From a virus (lineage: Duplodnaviria; Heunggongvirae; Uroviricota; Caudoviricetes), in the IMG/VR virus record IMGVR_UViG_3300037321_000115: a stretch of DNA of 64,000 bases; one strand, given 5' to 3'. Below the pieces are notes generated by a model. That model was given only the letters and a program-made list of their open reading frames with translations. It ran no database searches and had not been told where the DNA came from. The position numbers and the translations under genes are program-made. This document shows positions 42,329-62,582 of the stretch, one piece after another. The first letter of the stretch is position 1; each line of letters opens with the position of its first letter.

Positions 42329-42841
42329 TCACGTGATCACAGTGCCAAACATATCATACGTCGTGATGTCGTCGAACCCCTCTGACAATTCTGGCTTCTG
42401 ATAGTTTTTCATCATGCTATTTAGAATATGGTCTGGGATAGTCTTACCTGGACGAGACCCTAGACGTCGGTGCCATTCAGCACGTTCATTTTCTGTTTCT
42501 GGAGGTGTAAAACTAACACACTCAACAGAATAACCCACGGATTTCATCTTGTTGATGATTGACTTCCGTTTCTTGATGCCTAGATTTGTCTGGTCCCAGA
42601 TAATCCACTGACGTTCATCAGCAACCGCTTCTTCCAACATCTGATTCATCGAGGCAGTTGCCCCCTTGATATTATTCTCGAACATTTCATTGTACGTTGA
42701 ATTGAAATGAGTAGCAGCATCTTCAATAAACTGATCAGTGCTATATACAAAGTACGAATCCGGATCAGCAGAAATGACATTTTTCACAAATGTTGATTTT
42801 CCACTGGCAGGAACACCCACCATGACATAACATTTTTTCAT
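42329..42841 (-). CDS. polynucleotide-kinase-like P-loop protein (AAA_33/PseT kinase domain)
   Basis: MVGVPASGKST, YSTD..IE, IIWDQTNL...RK, R..RPGK.IP. Confidence 0.8.
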   Translation of the reverse strand: MKKCYVMVGVPASGKSTFVKNVISADPDSYFVYSTDQFIEDAATHFNSTYNEMFENNIKGATASMNQMLEEAVADERQWIIWDQTNLGIKKRKSIINKMKSVGYSVECVSFTPPETENERAEWHRRLGSRPGKTIPDHILNSMMKNYQKPELSEGFDDITTYDMFGTVIT

Positions 42842-44473: not shown

Positions 44474-44595
44474 TGGTACCCATTACCGGACTCGAACCGG
44501 TACGCCACTAAGGACATGAGATTTTTAGCGATGGTCCCAAACAATTTTAAAACCATCGTAGAAGTCTCAGGCGTCTACCATTCCGCCAAATGGGC
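44474..44595 (-). tRNA. tRNA-Leu (probably TAA) interrupted by a 36 nt insertion in the anticodon loop
   Basis: Leu-type body (GCCCATT/AATGGGT, A73, long variable arm); removing 44526-44561 gives an 86 nt tRNA with loop CTTAAAA. Confidence 0.75.
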
Positions 44596-45973: not shown

Positions 45974-46060
45974 TGGCGGAAGCCTGAGGTCTTGATCCCC
46001 ATACCTTGCGGTACCACCGGTTTTCAAGACCGGGTGACACTCCTGTGCCATTAAGCTTCC
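45974..46060 (-). tRNA. tRNA-Ser(TGA)
   Basis: GGAAGCT acceptor, G73, loop CTTGAAA, long variable arm. Confidence 0.9.
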
Positions 46061-47093: not shown

Positions 47094-47780
47094 TTATTTA
47101 ATTTCTGGAAAAAGACATTCTTGTATGAATGTCTTCACATCTTCTTCGGACAGTCCCAAACTAACCATTGTCTTAGGAGTGTGGGGGTTTTGCTTCTGAT
47201 AATATGCGTAGCGATTTTGCGCTTCTTTCACTAAAATTGTATCAGACGTGTTGTTAGTTTTTCCTATACTCAAAAGATATTCGTCTATGCTTTTACAACT
47301 GACTTCTACAATCTGATCAATCTCTTCTTTAATATTTATATTACCTGCTGCAATCATATGCGGGCTAAAAATAGCTTTTGCCCAATCTGGTAGATCGCGT
47401 TTCTTTCGCCATTCTAAACTGTCAACTTCTTCGCCAAAGTTGATAATCATTTCATGTTCAACATCTACACTCGCAGAATAATCATGGAAAAATCCAGTAA
47501 TTTTATTTTTGCCTGCAATTACATCAAGACCAAAAATAGGACCGTTGTTGTGTAGGTGTGGGAATATGCAACAATGCATCATCCAAAGACCTTTTGTCTC
47601 TCTAACATCTACCACATCAACATGTGCACGACGGTAGTTTTCACTGGTCCACACTCTGTTGACCCAGTTTGGTTTGTTAAACTGGGTCATGCCTTCTTCA
47701 AACACCTCATGTCCACTAGACTCAAATCTTTGAACTAACCTGTCTTGAATGTCGACAAGCGCATCCCAAACTTGACTCAT
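47094..47780 (-). CDS. ferredoxin-dependent bilin reductase (PcyA/PcyX family)
   Basis: W.N.VW.S..YRRAHVDVVD, LWMMHCCIFP, PIFGLDVIAG..K..GFFHDYS, LPDWAKAIFS..M.AAG, YQKQNPHT. Confidence 0.88.
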   Translation of the reverse strand: MSQVWDALVDIQDRLVQRFESSGHEVFEEGMTQFNKPNWVNRVWTSENYRRAHVDVVDVRETKGLWMMHCCIFPHLHNNGPIFGLDVIAGKNKITGFFHDYSASVDVEHEMIINFGEEVDSLEWRKKRDLPDWAKAIFSPHMIAAGNINIKEEIDQIVEVSCKSIDEYLLSIGKTNNTSDTILVKEAQNRYAYYQKQNPHTPKTMVSLGLSEEDVKTFIQECLFPEIK

Positions 47781-48296: not shown

Positions 48297-48371
48297 TGGT
48301 GGAGTCACTCGGACTTGAACCGAGGACCTGATGCTTGCAAAGCAACTGCTCTCCCACTGAGCTATGACCCC
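48297..48371 (-). tRNA. tRNA-Ala(TGC)
   Basis: GGGGTCA acceptor with G3:U70, loop TTTGCAA. Confidence 0.93.
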
Positions 48372-48390: not shown

Positions 48391-48513
48391 TGGCTCTTGT
48401 TGCAGGGCTCGAACCTGCGACAACCTGATTACTTTTGATACTTTCAGAATCGAACTGAACAATTTACCTTTAGTATCCACAGTCAGGCGCTCTACCAACT
48501 GAGCTAAACAAGA
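48391..48513 (-). tRNA. tRNA-Asn(GTT) interrupted by a 47 nt insertion within the anticodon
   Basis: Removing 48432-48478 gives an exact 76 nt cloverleaf with CCTGA-CTGTTAA-TCAGG, U1:A72, G73 and CCA. Confidence 0.8.
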
Positions 48514-48532
48514 GCAAAATATACTTTGTTAT

Positions 48533-48619
48533 TGGCGGAAGAAGGAGGAATTGAACCCCATGGATTTCTCCACGATTTGATTAGCAATCAGTCTTAATCA
48601 CCAGATTAAATCATCTTCC
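48533..48619 (-). tRNA. tRNA-Ser(GCT)
   Basis: GGAAGAT acceptor, G73, loop TTGCTAA, long variable arm. Confidence 0.85.
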
Positions 48620-48668
48620 GTTATTTGGTATTGACAAAAAGTATCTCAACCTCCTCCACATCAATTAT

Positions 48669-48794
48669 TGGTGAACCATCTAGGATTCGAACCTAGGACA
48701 CGCGGATTACTGTTGACATAGAAGATTCGCACTTCACAGGACTTAAAATCCTCTGTCCAAAGTCCGCTGCTCTAACCAACTGAGCACTGGACTT
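48669..48794 (-). pseudogene. tRNA-Lys(TTT) interrupted by a 49 nt insertion, 5' acceptor strand damaged
   Basis: Removing 48710-48758 gives GCGGA-CTTTTAA-TCCGC; D and T arms and A-CCA intact; 5' strand does not pair. Confidence 0.7.
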
Positions 48795-48883
48795 AAACCC
48801 ATTAGACGAAAGGACCACGATTATAACTTCTTAATATAATGTTCTGTGTTAAACTTTTCGTGTCAATATATATTATTGAATTT

Positions 48884-48956
48884 TGGCTCCAATGGTAGGA
48901 CTCGAACCTACAGTGCTTTCGCGTCTGGTGAGTTTACCAGTTCTTCTACATTGGAA
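48884..48956 (-). pseudogene. degenerate tRNA
   Basis: Acceptor CCAAT(G)/CATTGG, T arm GTAGG-TTCGAGT-CCTAC and GCCA end; no recognisable anticodon arm. Confidence 0.5.
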
Positions 48957-49485
48957 TGGTTGTGGTTGGCTCTACCGGATGGCGACTTAGATGCACAATG
49001 CATTACCGTGTTTTAATTTACTAATTTTAAATACATTCTATCACTTGGGCAATTTGACCTAAAGTTGGTTTTGGCTTTCAGGCCTATCTTGAGAGATTAC
49101 TAAGTGGTGTTTCACTTTACAACAGCTTTTAACTGAGACATTGCATTAACCAAGGCTGGAATTTTTTTGTTGTTAAACGTTATTCTGTTTTCCACTGCAC
49201 ATCCAAAGATTGCTTCCTATCAGGTTAATCCACTTTGGTAACCTAATGACTAATCAGAACATTTCAAGTAGACTATACCTAACATGCAGTAGAGAACAGA
49301 AAGAATTTCAATTAAGGTTTACAGGATACTATCCATACTTAATCATCTTTCAATCTAACAACATTTGTAGTTGGTTTCAAAGAGTGTGTTATTATCTGAT
49401 ACGTTCATTGTAACTTATTTGTACAGCTTTGTCAACGACTACATTTTATTTTTCTTAGTTGTTCCGCTACTGACAATAAAGTACA

Positions 49486-49650
49486 TCACCACATGTCACC
49501 AACATCTTCTAGTGACGTGACCAACCCATCGAAGTCTTCGGTTGGACCTAGAAGATCTGCAAGTTCAAAAGCAATGTGGCCATGCTCTTCTGCAAGTGTG
49601 TCGAGATATTCTTCGCGATTCGCAAAGCCGTTAGTTTCATAAACGTCCAT
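49486..49650 (-). CDS. 54 aa conserved phage protein, not in the ORF track
   Basis: MDVYETNGFANREEYLDTLAEEHG..LGPTEDFDGLVTSLED. Confidence 0.65.
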   Translation of the reverse strand: MDVYETNGFANREEYLDTLAEEHGHIAFELADLLGPTEDFDGLVTSLEDVGDMW

Positions 49651-49651
49651 A

Positions 49652-49867
49652 TTAACGCTCCAAAGTTACGATACGTCCGAAGTATCTATCAAAGGTAAGT
49701 ACGAGATTATCGTAATCACCACTTTTCATTTCATTTATGATCAGCTCATGATCAATCCCTAGTTGTTTTGCCAAGTCTCTCGCATATCCCATTAGAGCAT
49801 ATGCATTGCCATCAGGCCCTGTAAGGTCCAAAACGATTTCACGTTTTTCAATTTTGTTCCGAATCAT
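49652..49867 (-). CDS. conserved phage hypothetical protein
   Basis: LDLTGPDGNAY.LMG.A..LAKQLG, M.SGDY..L...FD.YFG. Confidence 0.75.
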   Translation of the reverse strand: MIRNKIEKREIVLDLTGPDGNAYALMGYARDLAKQLGIDHELIINEMKSGDYDNLVLTFDRYFGRIVTLER

Positions 49868-49952
49868 TGTCTAGTTCCTTTACCTTTTTTGATTGCTACA
49901 TCTTTTTACACTATGACGCCTAGCACGTCAACGCTAAGCGTCAGGAAATAAG

Positions 49953-50033
49953 TGAGCATGACCACGAATCGAACGTGTTTAATTGTCACTGACTATATAG
50001 TCCACTTCCAGGTAGCTACATCTGGCGTCATGC
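49953..50033 (-). ncRNA. tRNA-like element of uncertain status
   Basis: GCATGAC/GTCATGC acceptor-like stem and CACG-TTCGATT-CGTG T arm; other arms non-canonical. Confidence 0.4.
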
Positions 50034-50698
50034 TATTCGTATACAGCCAAAGAGACTGTCTACCAACGGGGTAGGCTCGACCACAAGTGTGGCGACTTAG
50101 CTGCAGTATGCAGTACCACGAGTTCTTCTGTTTTCAGTTACGTTGTTTGTTGATTAGAGACAATGTAGGTGAAAGCAGAAGGCAACAACCACCACACAGT
50201 CTGAAGAGCAGTGCACCAATTATTACCTCACGCAAAGTTTTTGAACAGTGTATATTCAAAAACTTTGCTTTCAATCCATCATCGAGAAAATTCTCTAAGA
50301 TCATAGGATACAGTTAGATTTAAAGAGCGTTGGTGTTTCTAAAATACCACGTCGTAGTGTTGTTTCGAACTTCTTTTTGCCTTTTGGCTTTGTTAGGCGT
50401 CCACAGTGTTCATAGTATACTCAACGATCCTTTTCATCAACCGTTAAAACAAAAAGCCCTGATAACAATATCAGGGCTGATTTAGAATAAAAATGTTTAT
50501 AAAAAACTCTATTATTCTAAATCAGCCTTCGCTATATTACTCACGGATGGAATGCAACCTGAATTGATACTATTCGGTCTCCCATACTGCAGTGATGTCG
50601 ATGTTCGTAGAATGTTCATTTTCTTCTCTCTAATGGAATTATAAGCTTATTTATAACAAAAATTCCAAGTTCGACAAATAAACTTGGAATTTTTCAAT

Positions 50699-51078
50699 TT
50701 AATTTTTTTGGATGGTGTGTATAAACTTTTCAACCAACGTGACAGAGTCTTTGTAAGCCTCCACCTCCCACCACCGTTTCATGTAAGGAATATCAGATCG
50801 GTTGTCGAGAAACCACCCCAGATTCTCTTTCATGTACTGCTCACGTGAACCATCTCATGAGCAATTGTGACAAAAATATCAATCGGTTGTCTCTCTTCCT
50901 CATTAACAAGAATGATAAACTCGTCTGGAGATGTATCAATGCACATCCCGACAGCATCAGACATGCGATATGTTGCGATCGTCAGCTCTCGTGGTACAAT
51001 GTCCAATTCTGAACACAAAAAGGTGACAAACCTCTCAACAACGTTTGTATCAAAATCGGACGTGAGTTCGATTTTCAT
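50699..51078 (-). pseudogene. HEXXH metallopeptidase-like gene with a 1-bp frameshift
   Basis: TIAHEMVHV then a frameshift at about 50840 to (K)QYMKE..PYMKRWWEVEAY; paralog of 52918-53331. Confidence 0.7.
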
Positions 51079-51082
51079 GTGT

Positions 51083-51322
51083 TTATACTTCCTCTTCGAA
51101 GAAGGTGTAGTATGATAACACTCTATCAGCACGGAAAGCAACTTCAGAAGTTCCGCCGTGTCTAACATCTGTGAATTTGAAAATTACATGGTTTGCGGTG
51201 TGAACAACGTCTACAACGCCTCGAATTTCATCTGTGATTGTGTTGGCCATAATCACAGAATCAGGTTCACCAACCTTCAGTAATTTAATAGAAGCTACTA
51301 CAACCATTGTTTTCGACTCCAC
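51083..51322 (-). CDS. hypothetical protein
   Basis: 79 aa ORF. Confidence 0.55.
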   Translation of the reverse strand: MESKTMVVVASIKLLKVGEPDSVIMANTITDEIRGVVDVVHTANHVIFKFTDVRHGGTSEVAFRADRVLSYYTFFEEEV

Positions 51323-51393
51323 GTCTATGTTGTTTTATATGCTTGTTATTACCTCGACTGCGGATGTTTGTCAACGAGGTTGTTATACATGCT

Positions 51394-51633
51394 CTAGCAG
51401 TTTTGGCAGAACCAAACAGTTCTCTTTCTGCTATAGGTTCTCTGGCCTGAATTAAAAATCCATGTCCATACTGCTCGGCGACTCTTTTGATTTCCGAGCA
51501 TCGCTCCAATCCACGTTACCCACGAAAGGCCTTGTTTGGACTTTCCTGTCTCGACATAAACCTTTTCGTTTCGCATTGTAGACTGGTTACAACGAAGGCC
51601 ACATACAGAGCAAGTTTTTTTCGTGTAGGTCAT
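51394..51633 (-). CDS. small Cys-motif protein
   Basis: CSVCG at the N-terminus and CQNC at the C-terminus. Confidence 0.55.
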   Translation of the reverse strand: MTYTKKTCSVCGLRCNQSTMRNEKVYVETGKSKQGLSWVTWIGAMLGNQKSRRAVWTWIFNSGQRTYSRKRTVWFCQNC

Positions 51634-51712
51634 GCGTTGACGTATCCTCTACGGTTCCTACACAACATAAAACGGTTACAATCAAAAGTCAACTCTAATA
51701 AATATTGTTTTA

Positions 51713-52018
51713 TTGGAGAATGTGATGGAAATCTACGCGATTGGGACTGAGACGAAGCAAAAAATAGGATTCAGCAAAAATCCTAAGGCAAGGCTGAAGC
51801 AATTGCAAACAGGGAACTCTGAAACACTACACTTGCATCACACTATACAGGTGTCTGAGGACAATGTCCGCATATTAGAGAAATTCTTGCACAAGGACAT
51901 TGGCTACAAGCGGTTGAAAGGCGAATGGTTTGACATGACAAAGTTAGATGCTATCAGTTATCTGACATTTGCAGATATAACATGGGCTCACGATCCGATG
52001 CTCAAGTACAAACTTTAA
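51713..52018 (+). CDS. GIY-YIG-like (T5orf172/MUG113-type) nuclease-domain protein
   Basis: IYAIG..KIGFSKNP..RLKQLQTGN, LEKFLH, R..GEWF. Confidence 0.85.
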   Translation: MENVMEIYAIGTETKQKIGFSKNPKARLKQLQTGNSETLHLHHTIQVSEDNVRILEKFLHKDIGYKRLKGEWFDMTKLDAISYLTFADITWAHDPMLKYKL

Positions 52019-52905
52019 CTATACTTGTCGATGACCGCTTGAAGCTCGTTGACCATGCGATCTAAAGGGACTTCGCACTTGACCGCTGTGCTAAGAGAGC
52101 CATAATGTTGCTCGAGACAGCTCATCAACAATTCTTTGATTGCTTGCTCGTCTGGGCCCTGCTGAAGTGTCGACTTCTGATATAAGTCATCAAGGTGTCG
52201 TTCCTTCTGCGTTGCCCACTCTTTGATTCTTTCATAAGACCATTCGCCACGACGAACAGATTTAAGCACTTCTCGATTACGTTCAATGTCCAAATCGTGC
52301 TCGACAAGAATCTGTTCGCATTGCAGTCCGAGACGTATTGTATGTGTTGCAAATTTTGTACAAAAACCAAACTTGGCAATGTTTGCTGCTCTTTTCTCAT
52401 TAGCAGAGTTTGCCTTTGTGCCAATTTTGTGCAGTTGGCTGAACATATATCCTCTAAACTTCTGATAGCTTCCTTTATGCAAGAACGATTTTCTATTGTC
52501 ACGAACAAGCTGTGCGACAGTGGTACAGAACAGCACACACCGTTGAGGCGTGAACAGCGAATCGAGAATGTTCGGATTGTTGTCCATTGCAAGTGACATA
52601 TAGGACACAATAGAGTAGATCGCAAAATCGTATTCCTGTCGTGTTTCTTTGTCTGTTACATGATGTTGTTGCCACACATTGAACTTGTCTCTTTGTGTTC
52701 CAAACCCTGGGATAATGCCTGCGAGGTGAGGAAACACATCCTCTTTGGGAGGAATACAAAAACCGACAATATCCATGTCTGATTCGTCTGAGTTGATTCC
52801 ATATGATTGTGAGCCTGCAATGGTTTCATAGTGGATGTTTGGTGTCAACCATTTTGGAGGACTGATCAATCCTTTTTGCTTCATAAGCTGTGCACGGGAC
52901 GACAT
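52015..52905 (-). CDS. Pol-beta superfamily nucleotidyltransferase (RlaP/Nuc-transf-like)
   Basis: GSQSYG.N..ESDMD..G, NNPNILD.LF, K.A.H..RL..Q. Confidence 0.85.
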   Translation of the reverse strand: MSSRAQLMKQKGLISPPKWLTPNIHYETIAGSQSYGINSDESDMDIVGFCIPPKEDVFPHLAGIIPGFGTQRDKFNVWQQHHVTDKETRQEYDFAIYSIVSYMSLAMDNNPNILDSLFTPQRCVLFCTTVAQLVRDNRKSFLHKGSYQKFRGYMFSQLHKIGTKANSANEKRAANIAKFGFCTKFATHTIRLGLQCEQILVEHDLDIERNREVLKSVRRGEWSYERIKEWATQKERHLDDLYQKSTLQQGPDEQAIKELLMSCLEQHYGSLSTAVKCEVPLDRMVNELQAVIDKYS

Positions 52906-52917
52906 ATACGTTCTCCT

Positions 52918-53331
52918 TTATGTGGTTGACAACAGTGGTGTGCAATTATCAACACTAAACAACTCTACCATTTTGTTCTCGATGTCGAACGCCTCTAATT
53001 CCCATGGAAGATTCTCGTAAATTTCTGTGTGTGGAACGCCCATCCACGTGTTAGGACGTCCGTGTACAAGCCTTCCATCATGGTGCTGTTTGACGTGAAC
53101 CATTTCGTGGAACAGTGTCCTCGCCACGTCATTTGTGTTCAGTCGCTGTGACAGAGTAATGACCACTTCGTCCTGTTCGTAATCGCAAAAACCGTAGACG
53201 TGCTTTTTAAGTTTTTTAAATTCTAACACAACATCAACATCAACATGCAGGTAATCGCACGCAAACGAGATTGCTTTGTCGAGGAAAGCAATCTCGATCC
53301 GTTTAGGCTTGTTGTAAACCTCGTAAATCAA
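52918..53331 (-). CDS. HEXXH zinc metallopeptidase-like protein
   Basis: TLFHEMVHVKQ, Y..LPWELEA. Confidence 0.8.
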   Translation of the reverse strand: MIYEVYNKPKRIEIAFLDKAISFACDYLHVDVDVVLEFKKLKKHVYGFCDYEQDEVVITLSQRLNTNDVARTLFHEMVHVKQHHDGRLVHGRPNTWMGVPHTEIYENLPWELEAFDIENKMVELFSVDNCTPLLSTT

Positions 53332-53747
53332 TCGAACGCCTTCATGATCTCGTCATCTGTTTTGCCAAGTGCCGCTTTGATCATCAAGAACTTGAATCCC
53401 TCTCCGATCAACGTCGCTTGATTTTCAACATCGACGTTGAAATTTACCACTGCAGAACCGTCTTCCATTTCAGTGATATTAACAATCTCTGCGCTTCCTA
53501 CCACTTTATCAGACGAAGACGAAACTGTTTTGAGTTTTTTAAAATCCAACGTTTCAACAAAATATTCATACTCCTTCGACACCGTGTAGTACTCAATCAC
53601 TTTCAGAAATCCATCCACACAACTAGATGTCTCATCAAGGTTGTGGTGACATTCCCACGGATCGTCAAGAATCCCTCTAACAACAGATTTTAGATCTGCT
53701 AGTATGATGCCATCTGCTTGATCGCACGTCAGTTCTACAGTTACCAT
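53328..53747 (-). CDS. hypothetical protein
   Basis: 139 aa, coupled to the next gene. Confidence 0.6.
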   Translation of the reverse strand: MVTVELTCDQADGIILADLKSVVRGILDDPWECHHNLDETSSCVDGFLKVIEYYTVSKEYEYFVETLDFKKLKTVSSSSDKVVGSAEIVNITEMEDGSAVVNFNVDVENQATLIGEGFKFLMIKAALGKTDDEIMKAFD

Positions 53748-53759
53748 TTTATAATTCCT

Positions 53760-55160
53760 CTAATTTGTTTGTAATTGATTTAGGTCGTTGAGAAACTGCT
53801 TCTTGATGGTTGTCTTGGACCAAAACATCAATTGAACTTCTGCGTCTTGACATTCTTTATCGAGCTGTTTGACCATCTCATCAGTAAGACTCATCATATT
53901 AACTCTTAGTAGCTTGTCAACATCTTCGTCTTTGGCAGACGTGTTGTCAACAATTTGTTTTGCCACACGGTCTTTTTTCATATTCTTGAATGTGATCTTG
54001 TTGTCGATTACCGCCTGAATAAATTGCATTTTAGCATTGAGCCATCTCGTGTCTTCAACATACTCCTCGATCCTTTTTGCAATTCTTTTTTCGATTACAG
54101 TGTTGCGATAGTCACAAAAGTCCTTAATCAACTGTCGCTCGTCTTTATACTCACGCAACTTTCCATCATGATCGATTACAACAAGATTCTCTGTGAACAT
54201 CTTCTCAAGTTTAAACTGTGTGAGAATCTTTTCATCGCTCCATCCTGATGAGGTGCTTTGCTTGAGCTTGACCTCAAATTTGAATCCGTCCTTGTCGCAT
54301 AGATCGTCGTATGAAACGATGAGGTCCCTATCTTCAAGAACATCAAGAATCTTCACGTAATTTTCTCTGTCGTAACCGTAGGGAACTTCAGTAATCGTGA
54401 CGATGGTCTTGCCCTTACGTTCAAAAATACCACGACTGACATAACGATCATTCTCAACGTCATATGACACTGTTCCTCGAAAATCAGGAAACTTCAGATT
54501 GACCTTATTAACAATGTCACCTGTATTGATATATTCTTCACATGCGCGTGCGAGCTCAATAGGATCGCGTGGTAGAATGTTTGTCGCGAACCCCGTACCA
54601 ATTCCCTTGATGCCATTTACAAGAACAAGAGGAATCGACGGAACGTAGAATGCAGGAGGCTCGTGCTCAGGGTCACTGTGAACAGGAGCAATGTCGATAT
54701 CCTTGATATACTTCTCGAAGTTGTCGTGTAATTTCGTATATGTGTATCGTGGAGCAGCAGCATCATTAACCAGTCGTGTTCCAAAGGAACCACGTCCTTG
54801 AATCAAACAAATGTTGTTTGCCCAATCAGCTGCCATTAACTGGCCCGCTGCAGCAGCAGACGTCTCGCCGTGGTTGTAGCCATATCCCGAGACCACACCT
54901 GATACGGCAGACACCTTCTTAAATTCCTTCTTAGAATTTTTGATGGACGAATAAAGATAAAACCGATTGACAGGCTTCATGCCATCGATCATGTTTGGGA
55001 TTGCGCGCGACTCGATGGTGTACATTGCGTAATCTTTCCACTCGTTGCTGGCAAGTGCGGAAAGAGGATACGGTTTAACGGTGGATTTTGACACTTGAGG
55101 AGTATCCTTTCGCTGTGTTTGTTCATCTTGTTCAAAGAAGTCTGTCAGTTGGTTATTCAT
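53760..55160 (-). CDS. gp52: type II DNA topoisomerase, GyrA/ParC-like subunit
   Basis: RAIPNMIDGMKP, YNHGETS, AAAPRYT catalytic Tyr, P.VLVNGIKGIGTGFAT.I.PR. Confidence 0.96.
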   Translation of the reverse strand: MNNQLTDFFEQDEQTQRKDTPQVSKSTVKPYPLSALASNEWKDYAMYTIESRAIPNMIDGMKPVNRFYLYSSIKNSKKEFKKVSAVSGVVSGYGYNHGETSAAAAGQLMAADWANNICLIQGRGSFGTRLVNDAAAPRYTYTKLHDNFEKYIKDIDIAPVHSDPEHEPPAFYVPSIPLVLVNGIKGIGTGFATNILPRDPIELARACEEYINTGDIVNKVNLKFPDFRGTVSYDVENDRYVSRGIFERKGKTIVTITEVPYGYDRENYVKILDVLEDRDLIVSYDDLCDKDGFKFEVKLKQSTSSGWSDEKILTQFKLEKMFTENLVVIDHDGKLREYKDERQLIKDFCDYRNTVIEKRIAKRIEEYVEDTRWLNAKMQFIQAVIDNKITFKNMKKDRVAKQIVDNTSAKDEDVDKLLRVNMMSLTDEMVKQLDKECQDAEVQLMFWSKTTIKKQFLNDLNQLQTN

Positions 55161-56986
55161 GTCAACATGAACTTTTTACGGAGGCTCGAGTCACTGCCAA
55201 ACATCACCTCAAACAGTCCTTCATCATCAACAGTAACCTGATCCATTGTTGGGTCGTTCAGGATCACAGAATATTCACTCTCTTCGAGAGATCCAAGACC
55301 TTTTATGAATCGGTGTGCATATCCATTAGTAACATCCTTTTTGAATTCCTCAGCTTCCTTATACGTGTAGAACCATGACGTCTCCTTGCCCTTTGTGGAG
55401 ATCATAATAGGTGTTCGCGTGATTCTGATCCGACCATCAGCCAACAGTTTTGGCCAAAACTTGTAGAAGAATGTTACCAGAAGAGCAGCAATGTGTCCAC
55501 CGTCTTTATCAGCATCAGCGAGGATCGCAATGTTCTTATAGTGAGCAAATTGAGCGCTGCTCGGATCGTTAATGTTTAGTCCGAGGACAGCAACAAGTTC
55601 ACTAAGTTCTTTGTTTTTCAAAACGTCTGAGGCCTTCATGTCCCAGATGTTCATTACCTTACCACGCAAAGGATACATTCCGTGCATTTTCGGATCACGA
55701 ACTTTGATGCAGAAACCTGATGCAGATTGACCTTCAGTCAAGAAGAGTGTCGCGTCAGGCGAAGAAGCAGAGATGTGCTTTGCAACTTTAACCTTCTTGA
55801 GTTTCTTCTGTGCTTGAAGTGCCTCACGTCGATCCTGCTGCTCTTTCTTTGCAATCTGAGCAGCAATGATTGGCTCGATAATGTCGTGTGCTGCAAACAG
55901 TCTCTTAGCTATATGTTGAAAAGGCTTCGCTCCTGATTTCTCAAAATGCTCCCGAACATCTGCAAGTGGATTGGTCAACCTCTCTTTGGTCTGACTGTCA
56001 AACTTTGGGTTTGTGAAACCACGCGCAAACATTACAAAGGTAATTCCGTTCTTCAGCGTAGATTTAGCAACTTCAATTTTGTATTTCTTTTTAATCATTC
56101 CGCCGAGTTCGTCCATTACATTGTTGACAATATAATCAACATAGACGCCGCCCTGGCGTGTATTCACTCCGTTGACAAAGCTGTTTGAACGAAATCCGTC
56201 ATCAGACGCTACAAAGAAGAACGACAAGTCGTCTGTCTTTTCAACGACGATGGACGCATCTTGCGGAGTAAACAACGCCGCATACTTTTTGAGGTCAGTT
56301 ACCTTAATCTTGCTTCCATTGAACGAGAACTGAATTTCAGGAAATGCTAATTGTAGAGACGTCAACCTATCTTCAACCAAAGCAACAGTATCAAGCTCTA
56401 ATACTCCACCAACTTCCAAAAGACTGAAATCAGGAGTAAAGGATACAGATGTGCCATGCCCTTCTTTCTTCTTGGTTTTTGCTTCGATTGTTTCAGCACC
56501 ATTGAGGCAATTTACCTCAATACATTTGCCATTCTGCCATGTGTGTCCAACAAAACTTGTTGACATATAATTTACAAGTGCTGCTCCGAGTCCGTGCGAG
56601 CCAATAGACGTTCTTTCACTTGAAAAGCTCGTACCAGAATTGTTTCTTGTCCACGCTGCAACAGGTCTTGAAATCATTTCGTTGGTGGACACGTCTAGGA
56701 TATCATCCTGTGGGATCCCTCTACCATTATCAACGATGGTGACAGTATCACCGTCAACGGAGACCCCTATTTTATTAGCACACTTGAAGTCTGTTCTGAT
56801 TGCTTCGTCGATGCTATTATCAACAATCTCGTCGATCATTTTTGACAATGCTGGCACATAGGACACTCTATCCCACTTGCCCACAACAAACCTATCAATC
56901 TCCTCAATAGATGTCGATCCAAGCCACATCCCTGTTTTTAGCCTTACATGTTGACGTGGTGTCAGTATTTCAAATTTTTCAGTCAT
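55157..56986 (-). CDS. gp39: type II DNA topoisomerase, GyrB/ParE-like subunit (gp39+gp60 fused)
   Basis: EIVDNSIDE, DNGRGIP, G.HGLGA, FLTEGQSA, YPLRGK, DADKDG, IKGLGS. Confidence 0.96.
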   Translation of the reverse strand: MTEKFEILTPRQHVRLKTGMWLGSTSIEEIDRFVVGKWDRVSYVPALSKMIDEIVDNSIDEAIRTDFKCANKIGVSVDGDTVTIVDNGRGIPQDDILDVSTNEMISRPVAAWTRNNSGTSFSSERTSIGSHGLGAALVNYMSTSFVGHTWQNGKCIEVNCLNGAETIEAKTKKKEGHGTSVSFTPDFSLLEVGGVLELDTVALVEDRLTSLQLAFPEIQFSFNGSKIKVTDLKKYAALFTPQDASIVVEKTDDLSFFFVASDDGFRSNSFVNGVNTRQGGVYVDYIVNNVMDELGGMIKKKYKIEVAKSTLKNGITFVMFARGFTNPKFDSQTKERLTNPLADVREHFEKSGAKPFQHIAKRLFAAHDIIEPIIAAQIAKKEQQDRREALQAQKKLKKVKVAKHISASSPDATLFLTEGQSASGFCIKVRDPKMHGMYPLRGKVMNIWDMKASDVLKNKELSELVAVLGLNINDPSSAQFAHYKNIAILADADKDGGHIAALLVTFFYKFWPKLLADGRIRITRTPIMISTKGKETSWFYTYKEAEEFKKDVTNGYAHRFIKGLGSLEESEYSVILNDPTMDQVTVDDEGLFEVMFGSDSSLRKKFMLT

Positions 56987-56988
56987 GA

Positions 56989-57186
56989 TTACTCTTCAGC
57001 CTTCTTTTCAATCACTCGCAATCTTGCACGCTCTTTACGTGCATCATCCCTCTTCTGTTGAAACTTATCAACATAGCCTACACTCCCTAATTCAACGACG
57101 TTTACATTACCTGCTTTAACTGCTGCATCGATCATGTCACGTTCTTCCTGAGTAAATCTCTGGTCGCGTCTATTAAGCTGAAACAC
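56989..57186 (-). CDS. hypothetical protein
   Basis: 65 aa ORF with GAGG RBS. Confidence 0.5.
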   Translation of the reverse strand: MFQLNRRDQRFTQEERDMIDAAVKAGNVNVVELGSVGYVDKFQQKRDDARKERARLRVIEKKAEE

Positions 57187-57277
57187 AGTTCAAGCCTCCT
57201 GTTTGGGGTAATTGGGGGGTTCTGACAGTTACAATGCATAAAACATTAAAAGGAACAGTCAATGAAAGACACTGTGA

Positions 57278-57478
57278 TTAAGTGACCTTGATTGACCATT
57301 CCTTGTTCAGTTTCATTTTATCGTTACGTCTCGAAGCCTTTTTCGACTTCTGATGGCTTCCTGCACCTGCTCCTGCTCTTTGAATCAGCTGCACAACAAA
57401 TTCGTTTCTTTGTTTGGGCAGGCCCTTTTTCTTCTTTTGCTTCATTGGATTTGCTTTCTTTGTTAAAACTTCGCACAC
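57278..57478 (-). CDS. small basic hypothetical protein
   Basis: RN..V..L..R..AG.H.KS.K..RR motif; start uncertain. Confidence 0.5.
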   Translation of the reverse strand: MCEVLTKKANPMKQKKKKGLPKQRNEFVVQLIQRAGAGAGSHQKSKKASRRNDKMKLNKEWSIKVT

Positions 57479-57667
57479 GTAAGACTATTTATATATGCGG
57501 AATTACACAATGTCAACTATCGTAATTACTACTGTTTGTTGAGCCAATTAAGCGTTCTTGTAGCCCAACCCCTCGTTTTGAAAGATTGAGACCAAGCGCT
57601 TGTGTTGTCAGGATATAAAATCGTCCAACCTTTTAGTGTTTGTTCAACGTGACACGAAGACCACAAA

Positions 57668-58111
57668 TCACCCATAGACGTATACCACAGGCAATGTTCG
57701 TGTCAGGGTGTTTTCTATAATTGCGGAGATTACGTCCCAATTTCCATTTGCTAATCCTGCACCAATCATCGGCAGCGCAATCTGTTTAATGTTGACGGCC
57801 GAGTCAATGTATCTGAAAGCTTCAGCAATGGCCCAATATGACACATACACTACATTTTTATTGTTGCCGTAGTTTTGCTGCGTGATGGCGTTGTAAATCA
57901 CTTTGTCGTCACGTTGGATAGAAGGGATGACCGTGCCCAGTTCAAGACCGACACGGTTATACTCATCTACGTATCTTTGATATGCTGGGGGATATTTTGA
58001 TCTGACCATCTTAGCAACGCCAGAGCCCATCACTCCGTGACTATTACAGCCGTGGACAATGTGGGCGATGTCTGTGGTTAACACATCGCCGCGACGATAC
58101 TCAATTTTCAT
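57668..58111 (-). CDS. macro-domain (ADP-ribose-binding/hydrolase) protein
   Basis: GDVL, IVHGCNSHGVMGSGVA, NAITQ..YG, IALPMIGAGLANGNW. Confidence 0.9.
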   Translation of the reverse strand: MKIEYRRGDVLTTDIAHIVHGCNSHGVMGSGVAKMVRSKYPPAYQRYVDEYNRVGLELGTVIPSIQRDDKVIYNAITQQNYGNNKNVVYVSYWAIAEAFRYIDSAVNIKQIALPMIGAGLANGNWDVISAIIENTLTRTLPVVYVYG

Positions 58112-58192
58112 AATAAATCCTCCATTTGTAGGTTATACACAGATCCGTAGTATACAATGACTACCTTTTTAGTCAACGGTAGTCATTATCAA

Positions 58193-58504
58193 TTACCACT
58201 TTTCTTTGTCGGACCAATATGCTGCACTCATTTTGCCGCGAGCGATGTCTTCACCGTGTCGCGCTTTGAACGATTTGCGCTTGGCTATCATTCTATCAGA
58301 TTCGCCTTTTTTGGGCTCACCAGCAGTTTCAGCACCTTGCTCACCAAACCGAATCAGTTTAATTTTACCACCCTCTTTGGCGACAACCACGTGCGATTTT
58401 GTTGCATGTGAGGGTGTTCTTTTTGGTTCATTGTATTTTGAAACACCTGCTGCTTTGAGCTGTGCTTCTGACTCAACGATATATTCCTTAAACGTATTCA
58501 TCAA
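58193..58504 (-). CDS. conserved basic protein with CTS-like N-terminus
   Basis: MNTFKEYIVE-S; KLIRFGEQG, RKSFKARH, SAAYWS.K.KW. Confidence 0.75.
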   Translation of the reverse strand: MMNTFKEYIVESEAQLKAAGVSKYNEPKRTPSHATKSHVVVAKEGGKIKLIRFGEQGAETAGEPKKGESDRMIAKRKSFKARHGEDIARGKMSAAYWSDKEKW

Positions 58505-58532
58505 CTGCTTCCTATTTAGAGGTTACAGTTAT

Positions 58533-58784
58533 TTATGTCATTTCATCGCCGTCCACTTTTCGACAATGTCCCATTGCAGACAACATCTCAGGATAGTCTA
58601 ACATTACTGTAAAGTGCCTATTAAGCTCACCAACAAGTAGTTCTTCTGACAATTGATCTGACCTTATCTCACAGTAGTGTTCTGTCTTATACGGACCCCA
58701 CGCATCTTTTATGTATATGCAATTGTCAAAATCGACCTCAAGTGCAAAAGAACTAGCACAAATCATAATTATAACTTCAAACAT
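58533..58784 (-). CDS. hypothetical protein
   Basis: Signal-like N-terminus, C..D.WGPY.TE..C..R. Confidence 0.6.
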   Translation of the reverse strand: MFEVIIMICASSFALEVDFDNCIYIKDAWGPYKTEHYCEIRSDQLSEELLVGELNRHFTVMLDYPEMLSAMGHCRKVDGDEMT

Positions 58785-58916
58785 GGTGGATTCCTTTCAT
58801 TGTTAAAACTTCGTATGTACAAGTGAAGTTACATTTTATATAAATAAGGTTATAGGCAATCGCGATACTACCAATATCCATTGCCACTAGTCTTATTCAA
58901 AGGTTTCAACCAGCAC

Positions 58917-60164
58917 ATGTCTATTTATAAAGCCTACAAATACAGGATCTATCCAACTTTTGATCAGAGGCGAACTCTTGATCGTAATTTTGGTGCAGTT
59001 AGATTCGTATGGAACCAGTTGGTTGCAAACTTCAATTCCTACGGTACGGATGATCATGTGAAAAATATGTCGGAAGCTCATGTCAAGTCAGAACACGTTT
59101 GGCTCAAGGAATGCATTTCCTTTTGCATTCAACAGAAAACGCGAGACTTTCACGAAACTACCAAACAGTTCTTCAACAAGAAACGCAAGACGAAGTCTGG
59201 TAGGCCAAACTTCAAGAAAAAGGGGGTCTCGAGGGACTCGATGAGAATCCCTGGTCAGGCACTGGCATATAACAAAGCGGTAGACTTCGAAGCAGGTACA
59301 ATCAAAATTACGAAAATGACGCCTATTAAAGTTGTCTATCATCGCGAGTTCAAGGGCGAACTAAGAAGTGTCACACTATCCAAGACCAAAACTAACGAAT
59401 ACTACGTATCGATCCTTGTAAAAGAAGAAATGCAAGAAAAACCTAAGACAGGCAAGGATATTGGCATTGATCTCGGTATCAATCACCTTGCAATCCTGTC
59501 TGACGGCACCAAATTTACTAACCTAAAATATTTTCGCGAAACTCAAGCGAAACTGAAGAAGATGCAACAACATCTTGCAAGAAAAACTAAAGGCAGCAAC
59601 AGATACAACCAGGCTCGGCTAAAAGTTGCCAAAATACACGAGAAAATAGCCAGACAACGAAACTGGTATTATCACCAAGTTAGCAACTATCTTGTTACCA
59701 ATTATGACAGCATCTTTGTCGAAGACCTTGCAGTCAAAAACATGGTTAAGAATAGGAAACTGAGCAAAGCAATCGCTGATGTCGCGTGGTCGACTTTAGT
59801 TGGAATGATGGCATACAAGGCGAACTGGTACGGTAAAGAAGTTTGCAAAGTCGGAAGATTCTTCGCCTCAAGCAAGACTTGCTCGTGTTGTGGTCACAAG
59901 CTAGACAAACTTGATCTTGGAACAAGAGATTGGACTTGTCCTAGTTGTCATGTTGTGCACGATAGAGACATAAATGCTGCCAAAAACATTTACAAAGAAG
60001 GCATGAAGAATTTTCATGGTCTACTGTCGGAGGATTTGCCCGACATCAACAATCGTGGAGAGGATATAAGACCAGAATGGTTCCTGCAAAGGAATCGTTT
60101 GGCAAACCTCAACGAAGCGACTAGCAAACCTGTAGAGTTCGTCGAACTTTATGGACATGCATAA
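58917..60164 (+). mobile_element. tnpB: IS200/IS605-family TnpB RNA-guided nuclease, no TnpA partner (IS1341-like)
   Basis: AYKYRIYPT, FGAVRFVWN, GIDLG (RuvC-I), VEDL (RuvC-II), SSKTCSCCG..CPSC..HDRDINAAKNI (zinc finger and RuvC-III). Confidence 0.93.
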
Positions 60165-60566
60165 TTACTTTGCGAAATAATCATTTGCGTACTTCTGTGC
60201 TACGCCAATAGGATCTTTTTGCCATGCGATAGTTGTGGCAATGTCATTTTCAATTTCAACAATTCTCTCTTGGTCATACAGTAGCGACCCTTCACACTCG
60301 CACGCTTCTTCGTCGCCCTTGAGCAATATACAGACCTCGTTGACACCAAACGAACATTCCTCTCCGTCGTTGAAATGTGGGGTATATTGAGTCCAAAACA
60401 GGTTTTCAACAAGCTCCCCATGACACGTAAAAAACTCTTTGAACCCTTCTGCCATCAGGTCACGCGACTTCGCTTGCGCCTTCGTCTTTAGTGCTTCTAT
60501 CTGGTTGTTAAGCTCACCACATTCAAATTTCAGCAGTTTGAGTGTTTTTGTGTCCATTTTCAGCAA
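60165..60566 (-). CDS. conserved phage protein, possibly 3'-truncated next to tnpB
   Basis: WTQYTPHFNDGEECSF.V motif; stop codon directly abuts the tnpB stop. Confidence 0.65.
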   Translation of the reverse strand: MLKMDTKTLKLLKFECGELNNQIEALKTKAQAKSRDLMAEGFKEFFTCHGELVENLFWTQYTPHFNDGEECSFGVNEVCILLKGDEEACECEGSLLYDQERIVEIENDIATTIAWQKDPIGVAQKYANDYFAK

Positions 60567-60847
60567 CTCCCTTCAATTAAAATCCCATCTTTGACGGGTC
60601 TCCATTTTGTTTCAGAAACAGTGTAGGATTCGACCTCATTGATGGACCACATCTCGTCTTGGCCATCTTGTATCTCTGTGGCGCCTTCACCCCAATAACA
60701 CTTGAAGAATTTCCCTGTCGAAAACTGCTGCACTACAACACTCTTATAGATCGACCACCGACTCTGATCTTCAATGGTTACACTATTGACGTGCAAAAAG
60801 TCTTCGCCGTCACCGTCTACAATCTCGTTAAACTCTTGTCTTTCCAT
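60560..60847 (-). CDS. conserved phage hypothetical protein
   Basis: SRWS.....VV......KFF...W..GATE.QD. Confidence 0.7.
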   Translation of the reverse strand: MERQEFNEIVDGDGEDFLHVNSVTIEDQSRWSIYKSVVVQQFSTGKFFKCYWGEGATEIQDGQDEMWSINEVESYTVSETKWRPVKDGILIEGSC

Positions 60848-61209
60848 TAATCAGCCTCCATTCCTATACTCATTATGTGCTTTCGCAAACCTTTGCCGAC
60901 CATCCAATCTTGTGGTGGCAAGTCCCCAAGCCACTGATCGATGGTAGGGATCCTACCTTGACAATCTTCTTTGACATGATCCTCGGCAACGTCCCGTACA
61001 GATACTTGCTTGCCATCTGTATTAGTAACGTACACGCCAAACAACTGCTCACAAAGGAAGATTCCAAACGTATTGTGGAGAATTGCTCGATGGTAAAAAT
61101 TTGCTGTGGACGCTTTTGTACTGTCGAGCCAGTTGTGAACTTCGAGATAATCTTCAACTGTTCCGCCGTATCGCTTAACTGAGTTCCGCGCGTGAATTAG
61201 AGGTTTCAT
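60847..61209 (-). CDS. conserved His-rich phage protein (DUF6915-like)
   Basis: HA..SVKRYGG..EDY..VH.W.D.TK, HRAILH..FGI, E.HV.ED. Confidence 0.75.
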   Translation of the reverse strand: MKPLIHARNSVKRYGGTVEDYLEVHNWLDSTKASTANFYHRAILHNTFGIFLCEQLFGVYVTNTDGKQVSVRDVAEDHVKEDCQGRIPTIDQWLGDLPPQDWMVGKGLRKHIMSIGMEAD

Positions 61210-61424
61210 TTGTAGTTGTCCTTGTTAATTTTTGACCACATAGAGAAGTAGTAGTTCGTTTCGGACATGTCATCTTTATAACTCCAAAACTTTTCTTTCT
61301 CTCCAATCGACATCCCATCAAACCACAACCAAAAAGATTGCTTGAACTGTTGATACTCGTCGTCGTTAGGGTGCATCTGCCCCAACCTTCTTTTCCACAA
61401 CTTTGTGCAGTCCAGGGTTGACAA
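61206..61424 (-). CDS. hypothetical protein
   Basis: FW.WFD......K.KFW.Y..DM.E..YYF. Confidence 0.55.
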   Translation of the reverse strand: MSTLDCTKLWKRRLGQMHPNDDEYQQFKQSFWLWFDGMSIGEKEKFWSYKDDMSETNYYFSMWSKINKDNYK

Positions 61425-61986
61425 CCAATGCTTTTGGCATCAGATCACGACGAATGAAGTTTCTCATATATTTCACATCTTGATTGGACACGTCTTCGAT
61501 CCATGAGACATCTTTACGTCTTGCCCAGTTGGCAAATTCTGCTTTTCTGTTCTGGCGGAACGGACGGATGACGTTTAGGTTTGCATATGGGATAATCTTA
61601 CCATTCCCGTGAATGGATGACCACAGCCACGTTTCAACACAATCGTCAAGATGGTGGCAGGTAATAACAGGGCTGTCAAATGAGTGGAACCACGCATACC
61701 GTTCATTCCTCCAGTACTCTTCCCACGATTCTGATTTCGATTTTGTGTTTTGGACGTTGCCAAATTCGACACGCGTATCATCAGAAAACTCTCTTTGTGT
61801 GAATTTTTCTGTGATGAAGTTTCTTGCATCTGTTGATGTCTCTGTGCCATGATCAAAAAACAACAAGTTCACTTTGTGGTTTTGCATCAGGAAGTCGACA
61901 ACAGCCATGGAGTCGATTCCACCTGAACAGGCAACGTTTACTTCACGGTCAATTTTCCCTTGAATTTTAATCAAGCTCCCGTCCAC
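61366..61986 (-). CDS. tilS: tRNA(Ile)-lysidine synthetase, catalytic PP-loop domain only
   Basis: ACSGGIDS, E..WRNERY, T.HHLDD..ET, IRPF, W.ED.SN....Y.RN.IR. Confidence 0.88.
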   Translation of the reverse strand: MDGSLIKIQGKIDREVNVACSGGIDSMAVVDFLMQNHKVNLLFFDHGTETSTDARNFITEKFTQREFSDDTRVEFGNVQNTKSKSESWEEYWRNERYAWFHSFDSPVITCHHLDDCVETWLWSSIHGNGKIIPYANLNVIRPFRQNRKAEFANWARRKDVSWIEDVSNQDVKYMRNFIRRDLMPKALVVNPGLHKVVEKKVGADAP

Positions 61987-62206
61987 GCAGATCCGCTTAA
62001 AGAAATGCGGATGTACTTTTTACCTTCTGTGCTCCCAATTTTGGGACAGAGTTTCGCCACCACCCTATCAGTTTTAGAATACAAACTGATAGGTGTGAAA
62101 TAATTGTTGTTGATTGTATGAATCAGAGCTTGTGTTTCTTTTTGCATTTGAAGCCTTTCATCGCTTAAAACATAGATACTTGTTTAACTCATGGGGATCA
62201 ACACTT

Positions 62207-62479: not shown

Positions 62480-62582
62480 TGATGTTATAGATACTCATCA
62501 TTCCATCAACAGTCTTTTCTTTACAGAATATCATGCAAGCAGCCTCAAACATTTTTCTTGCCTTATCTGTACTACATGTGTG

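Follow-up and report, generated by a model that had tools for sequence, protein, structure and literature searches.

Can a phage tRNA gene whose anticodon loop is split by a tRNA-shaped insert still give rise to a tRNA, and how would such an insert be removed? The question is raised by a tRNA-Lys(UUU) gene on the minus strand of a stretch of 64,000 nucleotides (nt), here called the window, from the IMG/VR record IMGVR_UViG_3300037321_000115 of a large, T4-like phage. The gene carries a 49-nt insert in its anticodon and lacks its 5' acceptor strand. Judged from its sequence, the object is a damaged copy of a conserved, mobile, tRNA-shaped mini-intron, a variant of a barely characterized kind. 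Added here are intact alleles of the gene, homologues with covarying stems in the cultured phage Atu_ph07 and in a tRNA-Arg gene, the swapping of inserts between host tRNAs, an empty site, a link to full-size forms through N-CCA ends, and an RNA ligase gene beside the cultured example. The best explanation overall would be a mobile tRNA-mimic intron that is removed by proteins and of which the window copy is dead, a reading that we hold to be about evenly poised between right and wrong.

The comparisons draw on L004, an 80.7-kb IMG/VR contig that is 99% identical to window positions 48489-64000; on L094, a metagenome contig that is a near-identical relative around tRNA-Lys and tRNA-Asn; and on Atu_ph07, a cultured 490-kb Agrobacterium phage, which infects an alphaproteobacterium and is the nearest insert-bearing relative. 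A BLAST search of the locus against cultured phages returned generic matches to tRNA halves only and no close cultured relative at the DNA level.

The interrupted tRNA-Lys(UUU) gene and its lost acceptor strand

The gene and its insert are made up of the following features.

48669-48794, minus strand: interrupted, 5'-damaged tRNA-Lys(UUU) gene (limits of the initial annotation; Rfam local match at 48680-48785)
48669-48785, minus strand: tRNA-Lys body, as read from the sequence
48759-48785, minus strand: remainder of the 5' exon, identical in L004
48785-48769, minus strand: D arm of tRNA-Lys, followed by A26
48767-48763, minus strand: 5' strand of the anticodon stem, GCGGA
48762-48759, minus strand: loop positions C32 to U35, CTTT
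48758-48710, minus strand: 49-nt tRNA-shaped insert (mini-intron) at anticodon positions 35/36, identical in L004 and 1 nt different in L094
48757-48752, minus strand: 5' strand of the outer (acceptor-like) helix of the insert, GACAGA, pairing with TATGTC at 48720-48715
48751-48739, minus strand: inner hairpin of the insert in the place of the anticodon arm, GGA-TTTTAAG-TCC (covariation helices 3-4)
48735-48721, minus strand: T-arm-like hairpin of the insert, GAAG-TGCGAAT-CTTC (covariation helix 5)
48720-48715, minus strand: 3' strand of the outer helix of the insert, TATGTC
48714-48710, minus strand: single-stranded tail of the insert, AACAG, abutting U36
48669-48709, minus strand: 3' exon, identical in L004
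48709-48707, minus strand: loop positions U36, A37, and A38, TAA
48706-48702, minus strand: 3' strand of the anticodon stem, TCCGC, followed by the variable loop
48696-48680, minus strand: T arm, CTAGG-TTCGAAT-CCTAG
48679-48669, minus strand: 3' acceptor strand ATGGTTC, A73, and encoded CCA

With the insert removed, the loop reads CTTTTAA and the anticodon UUU, which places the split between bases 35 and 36. The initial annotation had put a 49-nt insert at exactly this point, which is confirmed; ARAGORN calls the intact alleles of L004 and L094 as tRNA-Lys(ttt) with a 49-nt intron. Its description of the insert is equally accurate: the GGA start, the GACA/TGTC stem, GAAG-TGCGAAT-CTTC, and an AA-N-AG end before TAA (here AACAG) are all present. 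The GACA/TGTC stem can be extended to six positions, including one G.A. The layout is that of a miniature tRNA without a D arm, with a seven-position acceptor-like helix at the 5' junction, an inner hairpin, and a T-arm-like hairpin. In tRNA numbering, the 3' end of the insert comprises positions 66-72 and N73, followed by CAG in the place of CCA, and it ends exactly at the 3' junction. Upstream of the gene, a consensus promoter scan gave no score to a TTGACA at 48866-48861.

The damage lies at the 5' end of the gene.

48786-48800, minus strand: 15-nt patch GGGTTTAAGTCCAGT replacing the 5' acceptor strand and positions 8-9 (from the L004 and L094 alignments)

Where the window has this patch, L004 and L094 hold TAATAACGGACCATTA, with the acceptor strand as GGACCAT-TA. 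In comparison with L004, the change is a 15/16-nt replacement at 48785-48800 with otherwise identical flanks. The patch is unable to pair with ATGGTTC, and the window copy has no 7-bp acceptor stem. The Rfam tRNA model accordingly matches the window copy at model positions 10-63 only (31.3 bits) and the L004 gene over its full length (55.9 bits). ARAGORN makes no Lys call at the window locus with or without introns, though it calls the adjacent tRNA-Asn with a 47-nt intron. The insert of L094 differs by a single change, at its last position. The loss of the 5' acceptor strand that had been suspected from the window alone is therefore real, and comparison with the intact alleles supports the accompanying suggestion that the copy may be dead. 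Because the replacement destroyed the 5' acceptor strand, the window copy is probably a nonfunctional pseudogene, and because the near-identical L004 and L094 keep both GGACCAT and the insert, it would be a recent casualty.

The 38-bp duplicated segment that the initial annotation placed next to the gene was overstated and shrinks to about 13 to 28 nt. The patch matches the inner hairpin of the insert, about 50 nt away, at 12 of 13 positions (TTTAAGTCC.GTG), with the outermost pair swapped from A-U to U-A, and a repeat search found 28 nt at 71% identity between the patch area and the insert. Shuffled patches matched the gene equally well in 7 of 5,000 cases, and a patch match of equal score also occurs elsewhere in the window. 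The patch itself was not found elsewhere in the window, in the fetched loci, or in IMG/VR. The patch could plausibly have arisen by local template switching or by recombination with another, diverged copy of the insert. An artefact of assembly or consensus, in which case the real phage would have an intact gene, is suggested by the uniqueness of the patch to the window, by flanks that are 100% identical to those of L004, and by its partial repetition of sequence 50 nt off, which could mislead assemblers. We consider this quite improbable, given that the patch and the nearby sequence do not match exactly and that the window and L004 are also set apart by other short mosaic patches or indels, at 49080-49106 and 50367-50404, the remaining differences there being scattered single-base changes. 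Because of these other patches, the replacement is probably a real variant.

Homologues, covariation, and movement between tRNAs

Exact and degenerate scans of IMG/VR with the Lys insert returned only L004 and Atu_ph07, and a looser pattern of T loop and tail added the contig L221. Atu_ph07 has an unannotated tRNA-Lys(UUU) gene at 68159-68280 with a 48-nt insert at the same CTTT|TAA site, and in the tRNA-Arg(UCU) gene of L221 an insert of 50 nt lies at CTTC|TAA, where it likewise separates positions 35 and 36. The inserts of the window, Atu_ph07, and L221 have in common a G1 opposite an A, a helix that starts from nucleotide 2 and has a conserved noncanonical position 6, an inner hairpin, and a stem of 4 bp with TGCRAAT as its loop. 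A 5-nt single-stranded tail follows the helix, AACAG in the window and Atu_ph07 and AAAAT in L221. The inner hairpin of Atu_ph07 has a different sequence (TCC...GGA) and a different loop. Insert position and structure are thus kept in the homologues, the opposite of the outcome that the initial annotation had named as fatal to its proposal.

The stems of the insert covary. In alignment A5 (four sequences), all 65 informative cells of the 17 pairs are able to pair (100%), and 8 of the 17 pairs have changed on both sides; none of 500 shuffles equaled this result, and slid controls paired in 31-49% of cases. The outer helix (helix 2) is 100% paired over its five pairs, two of which show three Watson-Crick types across the four sequences, and two of the four pairs of the T-arm-like stem (helix 5) have changed on both sides. 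Loops and tails that are conserved while stems covary form the pattern that would be expected of a functional RNA. The inner loop TTTTAAG was considered as a mimic of the Lys anticodon loop, or decoy for a nuclease, and was rejected, the loop being AAAACG in Atu_ph07 and TATCAAAG in L221.

The first four bases at the 5' end of all three Lys-type inserts repeat exon positions 29-32, as GGAC/GGAC in the window (48758-48755 versus 48765-48762) and as GGTC/GGTC and GGCC/TGCC in the other two (L032 and L221). Because of this repeat, exon pair 31-39 and insert pair 3-70 covary together. The repeat may reflect an alternative pairing, or it may be a trace of the mode of insertion.

A second interrupted gene lies close by in the window.

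48394-48513, minus strand: sibling tRNA-Asn(GUU) gene with a 47-nt insert at 48478-48432 (Rfam full length, 56.4 bits; ARAGORN tRNA-Asn i(36,47))

The Asn insert, both in the window and in its Atu_ph07 homologue, shares the 35/36 site, the boundaries, and the architecture of the Lys type. The common boundaries, a G at the start and A-A-N-A-G before TAA, had been recognized from the window, as had the common site. The common architecture consists of an outer helix from nucleotide 2 and a T-arm-like hairpin stacked on the 3' strand of that helix. The earlier grouping of the two inserts in one family holds at this level and not in their interiors, and they are best read as subfamilies, not close copies: the Asn type has a 5-bp stem with the canonical loop TTCGATT, and its inner hairpin is minimal or missing, and the Lys type has a 4-bp stem, a UGCRAAU loop, and an inner hairpin. 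An alignment and a covariance model had been proposed for comparing the two. MAFFT was unable to align the interiors of the two types, so the family link rests on boundaries, architecture, and host swapping. A covariance model built from the Asn type only did recover the Lys-type insert of the window, at 24.4 bits (E=2e-4), and that of Atu_ph07, at 23.3 bits, both via the boundaries only.

Asn-type hairpins also occur inside tRNA-Lys genes, in inserts of 49 nt (L107) and 50 nt (L141). The L141 insert has the hairpin of the window Asn insert and ends in ACCA, and through this combination it links the miniature and full-size forms. In L094, the tRNA-Asn gene is uninterrupted (CTGT|TAA) and otherwise near-identical to that of the window, and this empty site fixes the boundaries of the Asn insert: insert and exons have no bases in common, and the target was not duplicated. 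Two related phages with the same tRNA-Thr(UGU) exons (GCGCA CTTG ... TAA TGCGC) carry unrelated inserts of 118 nt (L040) and 67 nt (L077) at an identical point, which suggests repeated invasion or replacement. Since Asn-type inserts occur in Lys genes, a Lys-type insert occurs in a tRNA-Arg gene, and the Asn site is empty in L094, the inserts are, as far as their distribution tells, mobile elements that share a target site and not fixtures of one tRNA. An interruption of another size was observed in L094 (positions 390-1140), where the tRNA after tRNA-Asn is split in its anticodon region by about 700 nt containing an open reading frame (ORF) with GIY-YIG-like motifs, followed by group-I-like sequence; its counterpart in the window is an uninterrupted tRNA-Ala at 48297-48371.

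Scans, together with ARAGORN with introns allowed, revealed many further interrupted phage tRNAs. Inserts of 70-78 nt in tRNA-Lys genes are complete tRNA look-alikes with ACCA or GCCA right before TAA (L036, L040, L059, and L090), a tRNA-Arg gene of L141 has a 77-nt insert ending in ACCA, and other inserts were found in Asn, Gln (34/35), Glu (36/37), and probably Trp genes. Atu_ph07 holds a Lys-type insert, an Asn-type insert in its tRNA-Asn gene at 323905-324023, and a third insert. All members examined have the first position of the acceptor-like helix within 0-1 nt of the 5' junction. Seven positions of helix, then one base and then three more, equivalent to tRNA positions 1-76, make up a frame that fits 11 of the 15 inserts in a first table and all 15 in a second, overlapping insert set, in which 9 of 15 end in N-CCA. 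Across 15 inserts, the acceptor-like helices contain 83 Watson-Crick pairs, 9 G.U pairs, and no A.C pairs. Because G.U is present and A.C is not, selection would act on the RNA of the tRNA strand and not on a DNA hairpin.

The possibility that the insert is a genuine tRNA was rejected: none of the short inserts is recognized as a tRNA by ARAGORN, whether in standard, mitochondrial, or relaxed mode, there is no D arm, and the inner loop is unconserved. A pattern scan of one genome from each of 185,579 prokaryote species gave 23 matches, none of which was a short tRNA-like insert. In two contigs of cellular metagenome-assembled genomes (L245 and L247, from a betaproteobacterium and a planctomycete), long inserts of a different type, which may be group I introns, interrupt tRNA-Lys after CTTT.

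Two interrupted genes with simpler inserts were also observed. At window positions 44477-44595 (minus strand), a class II Leu-like tRNA has a plain hairpin of 36-37 nt (CGATGGT/ACCATCG) in its anticodon loop, in an ambiguous register (Leu-UAA/UCA). At Atu_ph07 positions 335108-335213 (minus strand; L018), a class I body reads TTTG, a 33-nt hairpin, and TAA, most simply Thr(UGU) split at 35/36; ARAGORN offers Ser(tga), split one base later, as an alternative.

The interrupted genes of the window belong to a tRNA array at about 44.4-49.0 kb on the minus strand, which carries almost all window genes. Among the latter are those for ribonucleotide reductase, gp32, gp59, a split gp41 helicase, a split UvsX, and topoisomerase II. 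The array is rich in degenerate tRNA-like genes. One tRNA-like gene at 48881-48950 (minus strand) has a good acceptor and T arm and degenerate D and anticodon arms, and it is kept in L004 (Rfam, 32.6 bits there). Two class II tRNAs at 48537-48619 and 45978-46060 (minus strand), Ser(GCU) and Ser(UGA) by their loops, are both missed by ARAGORN, and their sole Rfam match is a subthreshold one to the tRNA-Sec model. A gene for a ferredoxin-dependent bilin reductase (47094-47780, minus strand) lies within the array, and a heme oxygenase gene is nearby (33377-33949, minus strand). An IS605 OrfB/TnpB gene (58881-60164, plus strand) is in a segment of about 1.4 kb, for which L004 has a segment of about 0.3 kb instead.

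Proposed removal of the insert

The exons are canonical in Atu_ph07, L004, L094, L107, L141, and L221. Atu_ph07 has about 34 tRNA genes, and its sole genes for Lys(UUU), Asn(GUU), and Thr(UGU) are the interrupted ones. Because the exons are intact and Atu_ph07 has no other genes for these isoacceptors, removal of the insert is implied, and dead genes are hard to reconcile with these data. We therefore consider it probable that the insert is removed at the RNA level, in a protein-dependent manner of some kind.

A specific route can be proposed, tentatively and at somewhat below even confidence, in which RNase P, a 3' endonuclease, and a phage RNA ligase act together. The tRNA mimic would recruit RNase P, which would cut exactly at the 5' junction and leave a 3'-OH on U35. 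A second endonucleolytic cut, for example by an enzyme of the RNase Z/BN type, would fall at the end of the 3' tail of the mimic, so that U36 would bear a 5'-phosphate. Kept in place by the body of the tRNA, the two halves would then be sealed by a phage ATP-dependent RNA ligase of the anticodon-loop repair kind. RNase P is proposed at the 5' junction because the first base of the mimic is the first base of the insert, which is where RNase P cuts, and a 3' end-processing cut is proposed because the N-CCA forms end exactly at a mature tRNA 3' end. Rnl-type ligases join 3'-OH to 5'-phosphate ends, which are the ends produced by RNase P and RNase Z.

Enzymes were sought in five related phage records (W01 and G001 to G004), with about 129 kb known for the window phage. 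Atu_ph07 encodes an Rnl1-type ligase, and a further RNA ligase gene is found some 1 kb downstream of its interrupted tRNA-Lys, at a locus where an HNH endonuclease gene sits immediately upstream; the ligase genes of this phage lie at 66519-67163 and 201090-201674. Both ligase types are present in G003, and G002 and G004 encode OB-fold plus RNA-ligase proteins, that of G002 beside RlaP. The window encodes a Macro domain protein and two candidate RNA repair enzymes.

52015-52905, minus strand: RlaP-family nucleotidyltransferase (Pfam PF10127; E=4.6e-17), of an RNA-ligase-associated family and a possible accessory of tRNA repair or splicing
42329-42841, minus strand: AAA_33 P-loop kinase, polynucleotide-kinase-like (Pfam PF13671; E=4.7e-18), a possible RNA end-healing enzyme

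EndA (PF01974) was not found in W01 or G001 to G004, although archaeal controls were positive, and RtcB was not found in the five records. An Rfam search over 35-52 kb at E<=1 gave no match to an intron family, nor did any ribozyme family match over the insert.

Three established routes of intron removal were considered and rejected. A group I intron has a core of at least about 200 nt, versus 49 nt here, and the insert has no Rfam match and a terminal base that may be G, T, or A. No bulge-helix-bulge can be drawn, the junctions lying in a 5 x 8 nt internal loop beside the insert helix, and EndA is absent from the five records searched. The RtcB route was dismissed, as the same records encode no RtcB.

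Several observations weigh against a protein-removed tRNA mimic or against the route proposed for it. The acceptor and T stack of the Lys type has 11 bp, not 12, and includes noncanonical G1.A72 and G6.A67. Single-sequence folding is weak (z of -1.2 for the window insert and -0.8 to -2.4 over the inserts), and the minimum free energy structure of the window insert alone prefers a nonconserved alternative helix to the tRNA-like fold. Plain hairpin inserts without a T arm occur in the same phages, in the Atu_ph07 Thr gene (33 nt), the Leu-like gene of the window, and L101. Over the wider family, the length of the 3' tail varies among 2, 3, 4, 6, 7, and 11 nt, and a single rule of cutting after position 76 fails for this reason. 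The usual cut of RNase Z, moreover, directly follows N73 and does not lie three bases further on. The scanned window ORFs and G001, which cover about 129 kb of this phage and leave about 40% of the genome uncovered, yielded no RNA ligase, and since such ligases are widespread in large phages rich in tRNA genes, finding them in a genome has little power to discriminate. Finally, a split of the Lys-type insert at 36/37 instead would give a UUG anticodon. Nearest-neighbor typing of the exon body placed Val, Asn, Arg, and Lys alike and Gln low; it is not decisive, but because Gln ranked low, the 36/37 split appears unlikely. A scan for an intron-less allele of the window tRNA-Lys found none.

Of the alternatives to this explanation, the one that survives best is a dedicated phage-encoded endonuclease, which would measure from the anticodon stem or read the junctions, the tRNA shape then serving folding or mobility. 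It would fit the constancy of the exon-relative site (35/36) while tail lengths vary by lineage, the shared tail length of the inserts of one phage (2 nt in both L057 inserts), and the hairpin-only inserts at the same site; many unannotated genes also flank the Atu_ph07 tRNA-Lys and its ligase gene. However, no candidate nuclease was found, an EndA-like domain is absent, and a stem-measuring enzyme leaves both the helix start at the 5' junction and the frequent N-CCA ends unexplained, and we regard this alternative as doubtful.

It is unlikely that the insert is never removed and is a selfish DNA element that inactivates anticodon loops, in which case the genes would be decaying relics and the window copy would be further along. 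Exons that are fully canonical in at least six divergent phages, among them the sole Lys(UUU), Asn(GUU), and Thr(UGU) genes of Atu_ph07, are at odds with such decay, and compensatory stem changes and G.U without A.C point to selection on the tRNA-strand transcript. The damage to the window copy, the differences in presence and absence among near-identical phages, the HNH endonuclease gene adjoining the Atu_ph07 copy, and the abundance of degenerate tRNA-like genes in the window array are the features that would accord with it.

The miniature tRNA could also be the useful product, serving to decoy or regulate an anticodon nuclease or some enzyme that binds tRNA, with the host tRNA mainly supplying signals for transcription and processing. 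Although conservation of the T-like loop TGCRAAT and of the tail AACAG exceeds the needs of pairing and the ends of the insert match mature tRNA ends, the inner loop and most of the sequence are unconserved between homologues, unrelated insert lineages occupy the same site, ARAGORN sees no short insert as a tRNA, and mimicry of the Lys anticodon loop fails in Atu_ph07 and L221, all of which makes this very unlikely. A very small self-splicing or self-cleaving ribozyme is extremely improbable: several inserts do end in G, and the 5' exon ends in U beside G, as at group I splice sites, but 49 nt is far below the size of a group I or group II core, no Rfam ribozyme matches, and the terminal G is unconserved (T in L094 and L221 and A in CCA-ending relatives).

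Returning to the mobile tRNA mimic removed by proteins, it is possible, though our confidence in this falls well short of even, that the inserts form a distinct, ribozyme-free class of introns whose ends would be set by the tRNA end-processing enzymes of the cell and whose host tRNA would be resealed by a phage repair ligase. Because the excised piece would carry 5'-phosphate and 3'-OH ends, the same ligase could now and then reinsert it into another cleaved anticodon loop. Such reinsertion, if it occurs, would explain the moves of insert lineages among Lys, Asn, Arg, Thr, Gln, and Trp tRNAs.

Bacteria and their viruses are not known to remove introns in any way other than through RNA that splices itself. 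If the proposed route is correct, a protein-dependent intron that uses RNase P, a 3' tRNA nuclease, and a repair ligase would be a third removal route in bacteria, and phage RNA ligases would gain a housekeeping job beyond the repair of damage inflicted by host defense. Lys(UUU) and Asn tRNAs are favored targets of anticodon nucleases (PrrC and colicin E5), and a gene product that arises only after ligation under phage control may bear on this conflict. Atu_ph07, a cultured phage that can be grown on a standard laboratory strain and has three inserts and a ligase gene beside its interrupted tRNA-Lys, offers a tractable test system. Standard bacterial tRNA finders miss the interrupted genes, and phage tRNA repertoires are undercounted as a result.

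Comparison with known systems

Devoto et al. (2019, PMC6784885) described the nearest published relatives, tRNA introns of Lak megaphages that they called "enigmatic", and stated of one of them that it "may encode a tRNA"; a 2026 survey of jumbo phages likewise noted that tRNA introns "could encode another tRNA" (PMC13037316). The Lak introns also lie in phage tRNA anticodon loops, some have a tRNA-like acceptor and T arm, and they are identical across relatives and variably present. In the supplementary Tyr example (PMC6784885), an acceptor/T-arm module is found near the 3' end. In contrast to the window insert, they are at least 90 nt long and occur in Tyr, Phe, Gly, and Thr tRNAs of phages of Bacteroidota with recoded stop codons. 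Their position as given by tRNAscan is the default 37/38, whereas the window insert is at 35/36 and is a 49-nt miniature without a D arm in a T4-like phage, with homologues that show compensatory change, one of them in a cultured phage. In the literature, we found no paper on the mechanism, the 35/36 site, or the miniature D-arm-less form of such inserts.

Group I introns are found in tRNA anticodon loops, including those of tRNA-Leu(UAA) in cyanobacteria and tRNA-Ile in Azoarcus (PMC13168695). Like the inserts described here, they split the anticodon loop, are mobile and sporadic, and are often accompanied by homing endonuclease genes, but they are at least about 200 nt long with a conserved catalytic core and a terminal G, whereas the 49-nt window insert has no Rfam intron match and no conserved terminal G. 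Agrobacterium itself has a group I intron in a tRNA-Arg gene. The archaeal and eukaryal introns, which are removed via a bulge-helix-bulge, EndA/Sen, and RtcB or Trl1, are also small and located in or near the anticodon loop, and the window insert would resemble them in its dependence on proteins. Their site is 37/38 and not 35/36, and for the insert no bulge-helix-bulge can be recognized, nor were EndA or RtcB found in related phages.

In T4, tRNA-Lys is cut by PrrC, and Pnkp and Rnl1 counter the damage (reviewed in PMC7824862). The two systems have in common the anticodon loop of tRNA-Lys(UUU) and, under the route proposed here, resealing by a phage RNA ligase; the window has RlaP and a polynucleotide-kinase-like protein, and Atu_ph07 has a ligase gene adjacent to the interrupted tRNA-Lys. 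They differ in that the T4 repair follows cleavage of a mature tRNA at 33/34 by a host defense nuclease, whereas the break here would be programmed by the insert in the gene. Precedents for tRNA-like elements that are freed by RNase P and RNase Z are the mascRNA of MALAT1 and the "tRNA punctuation" model of mitochondria. In these systems, a tRNA mimic sets precise cuts by end-processing enzymes, as is proposed for the window insert; they are eukaryotic, and the flanks are not rejoined, whereas the flanks of the insert would be sealed into a tRNA-Lys.

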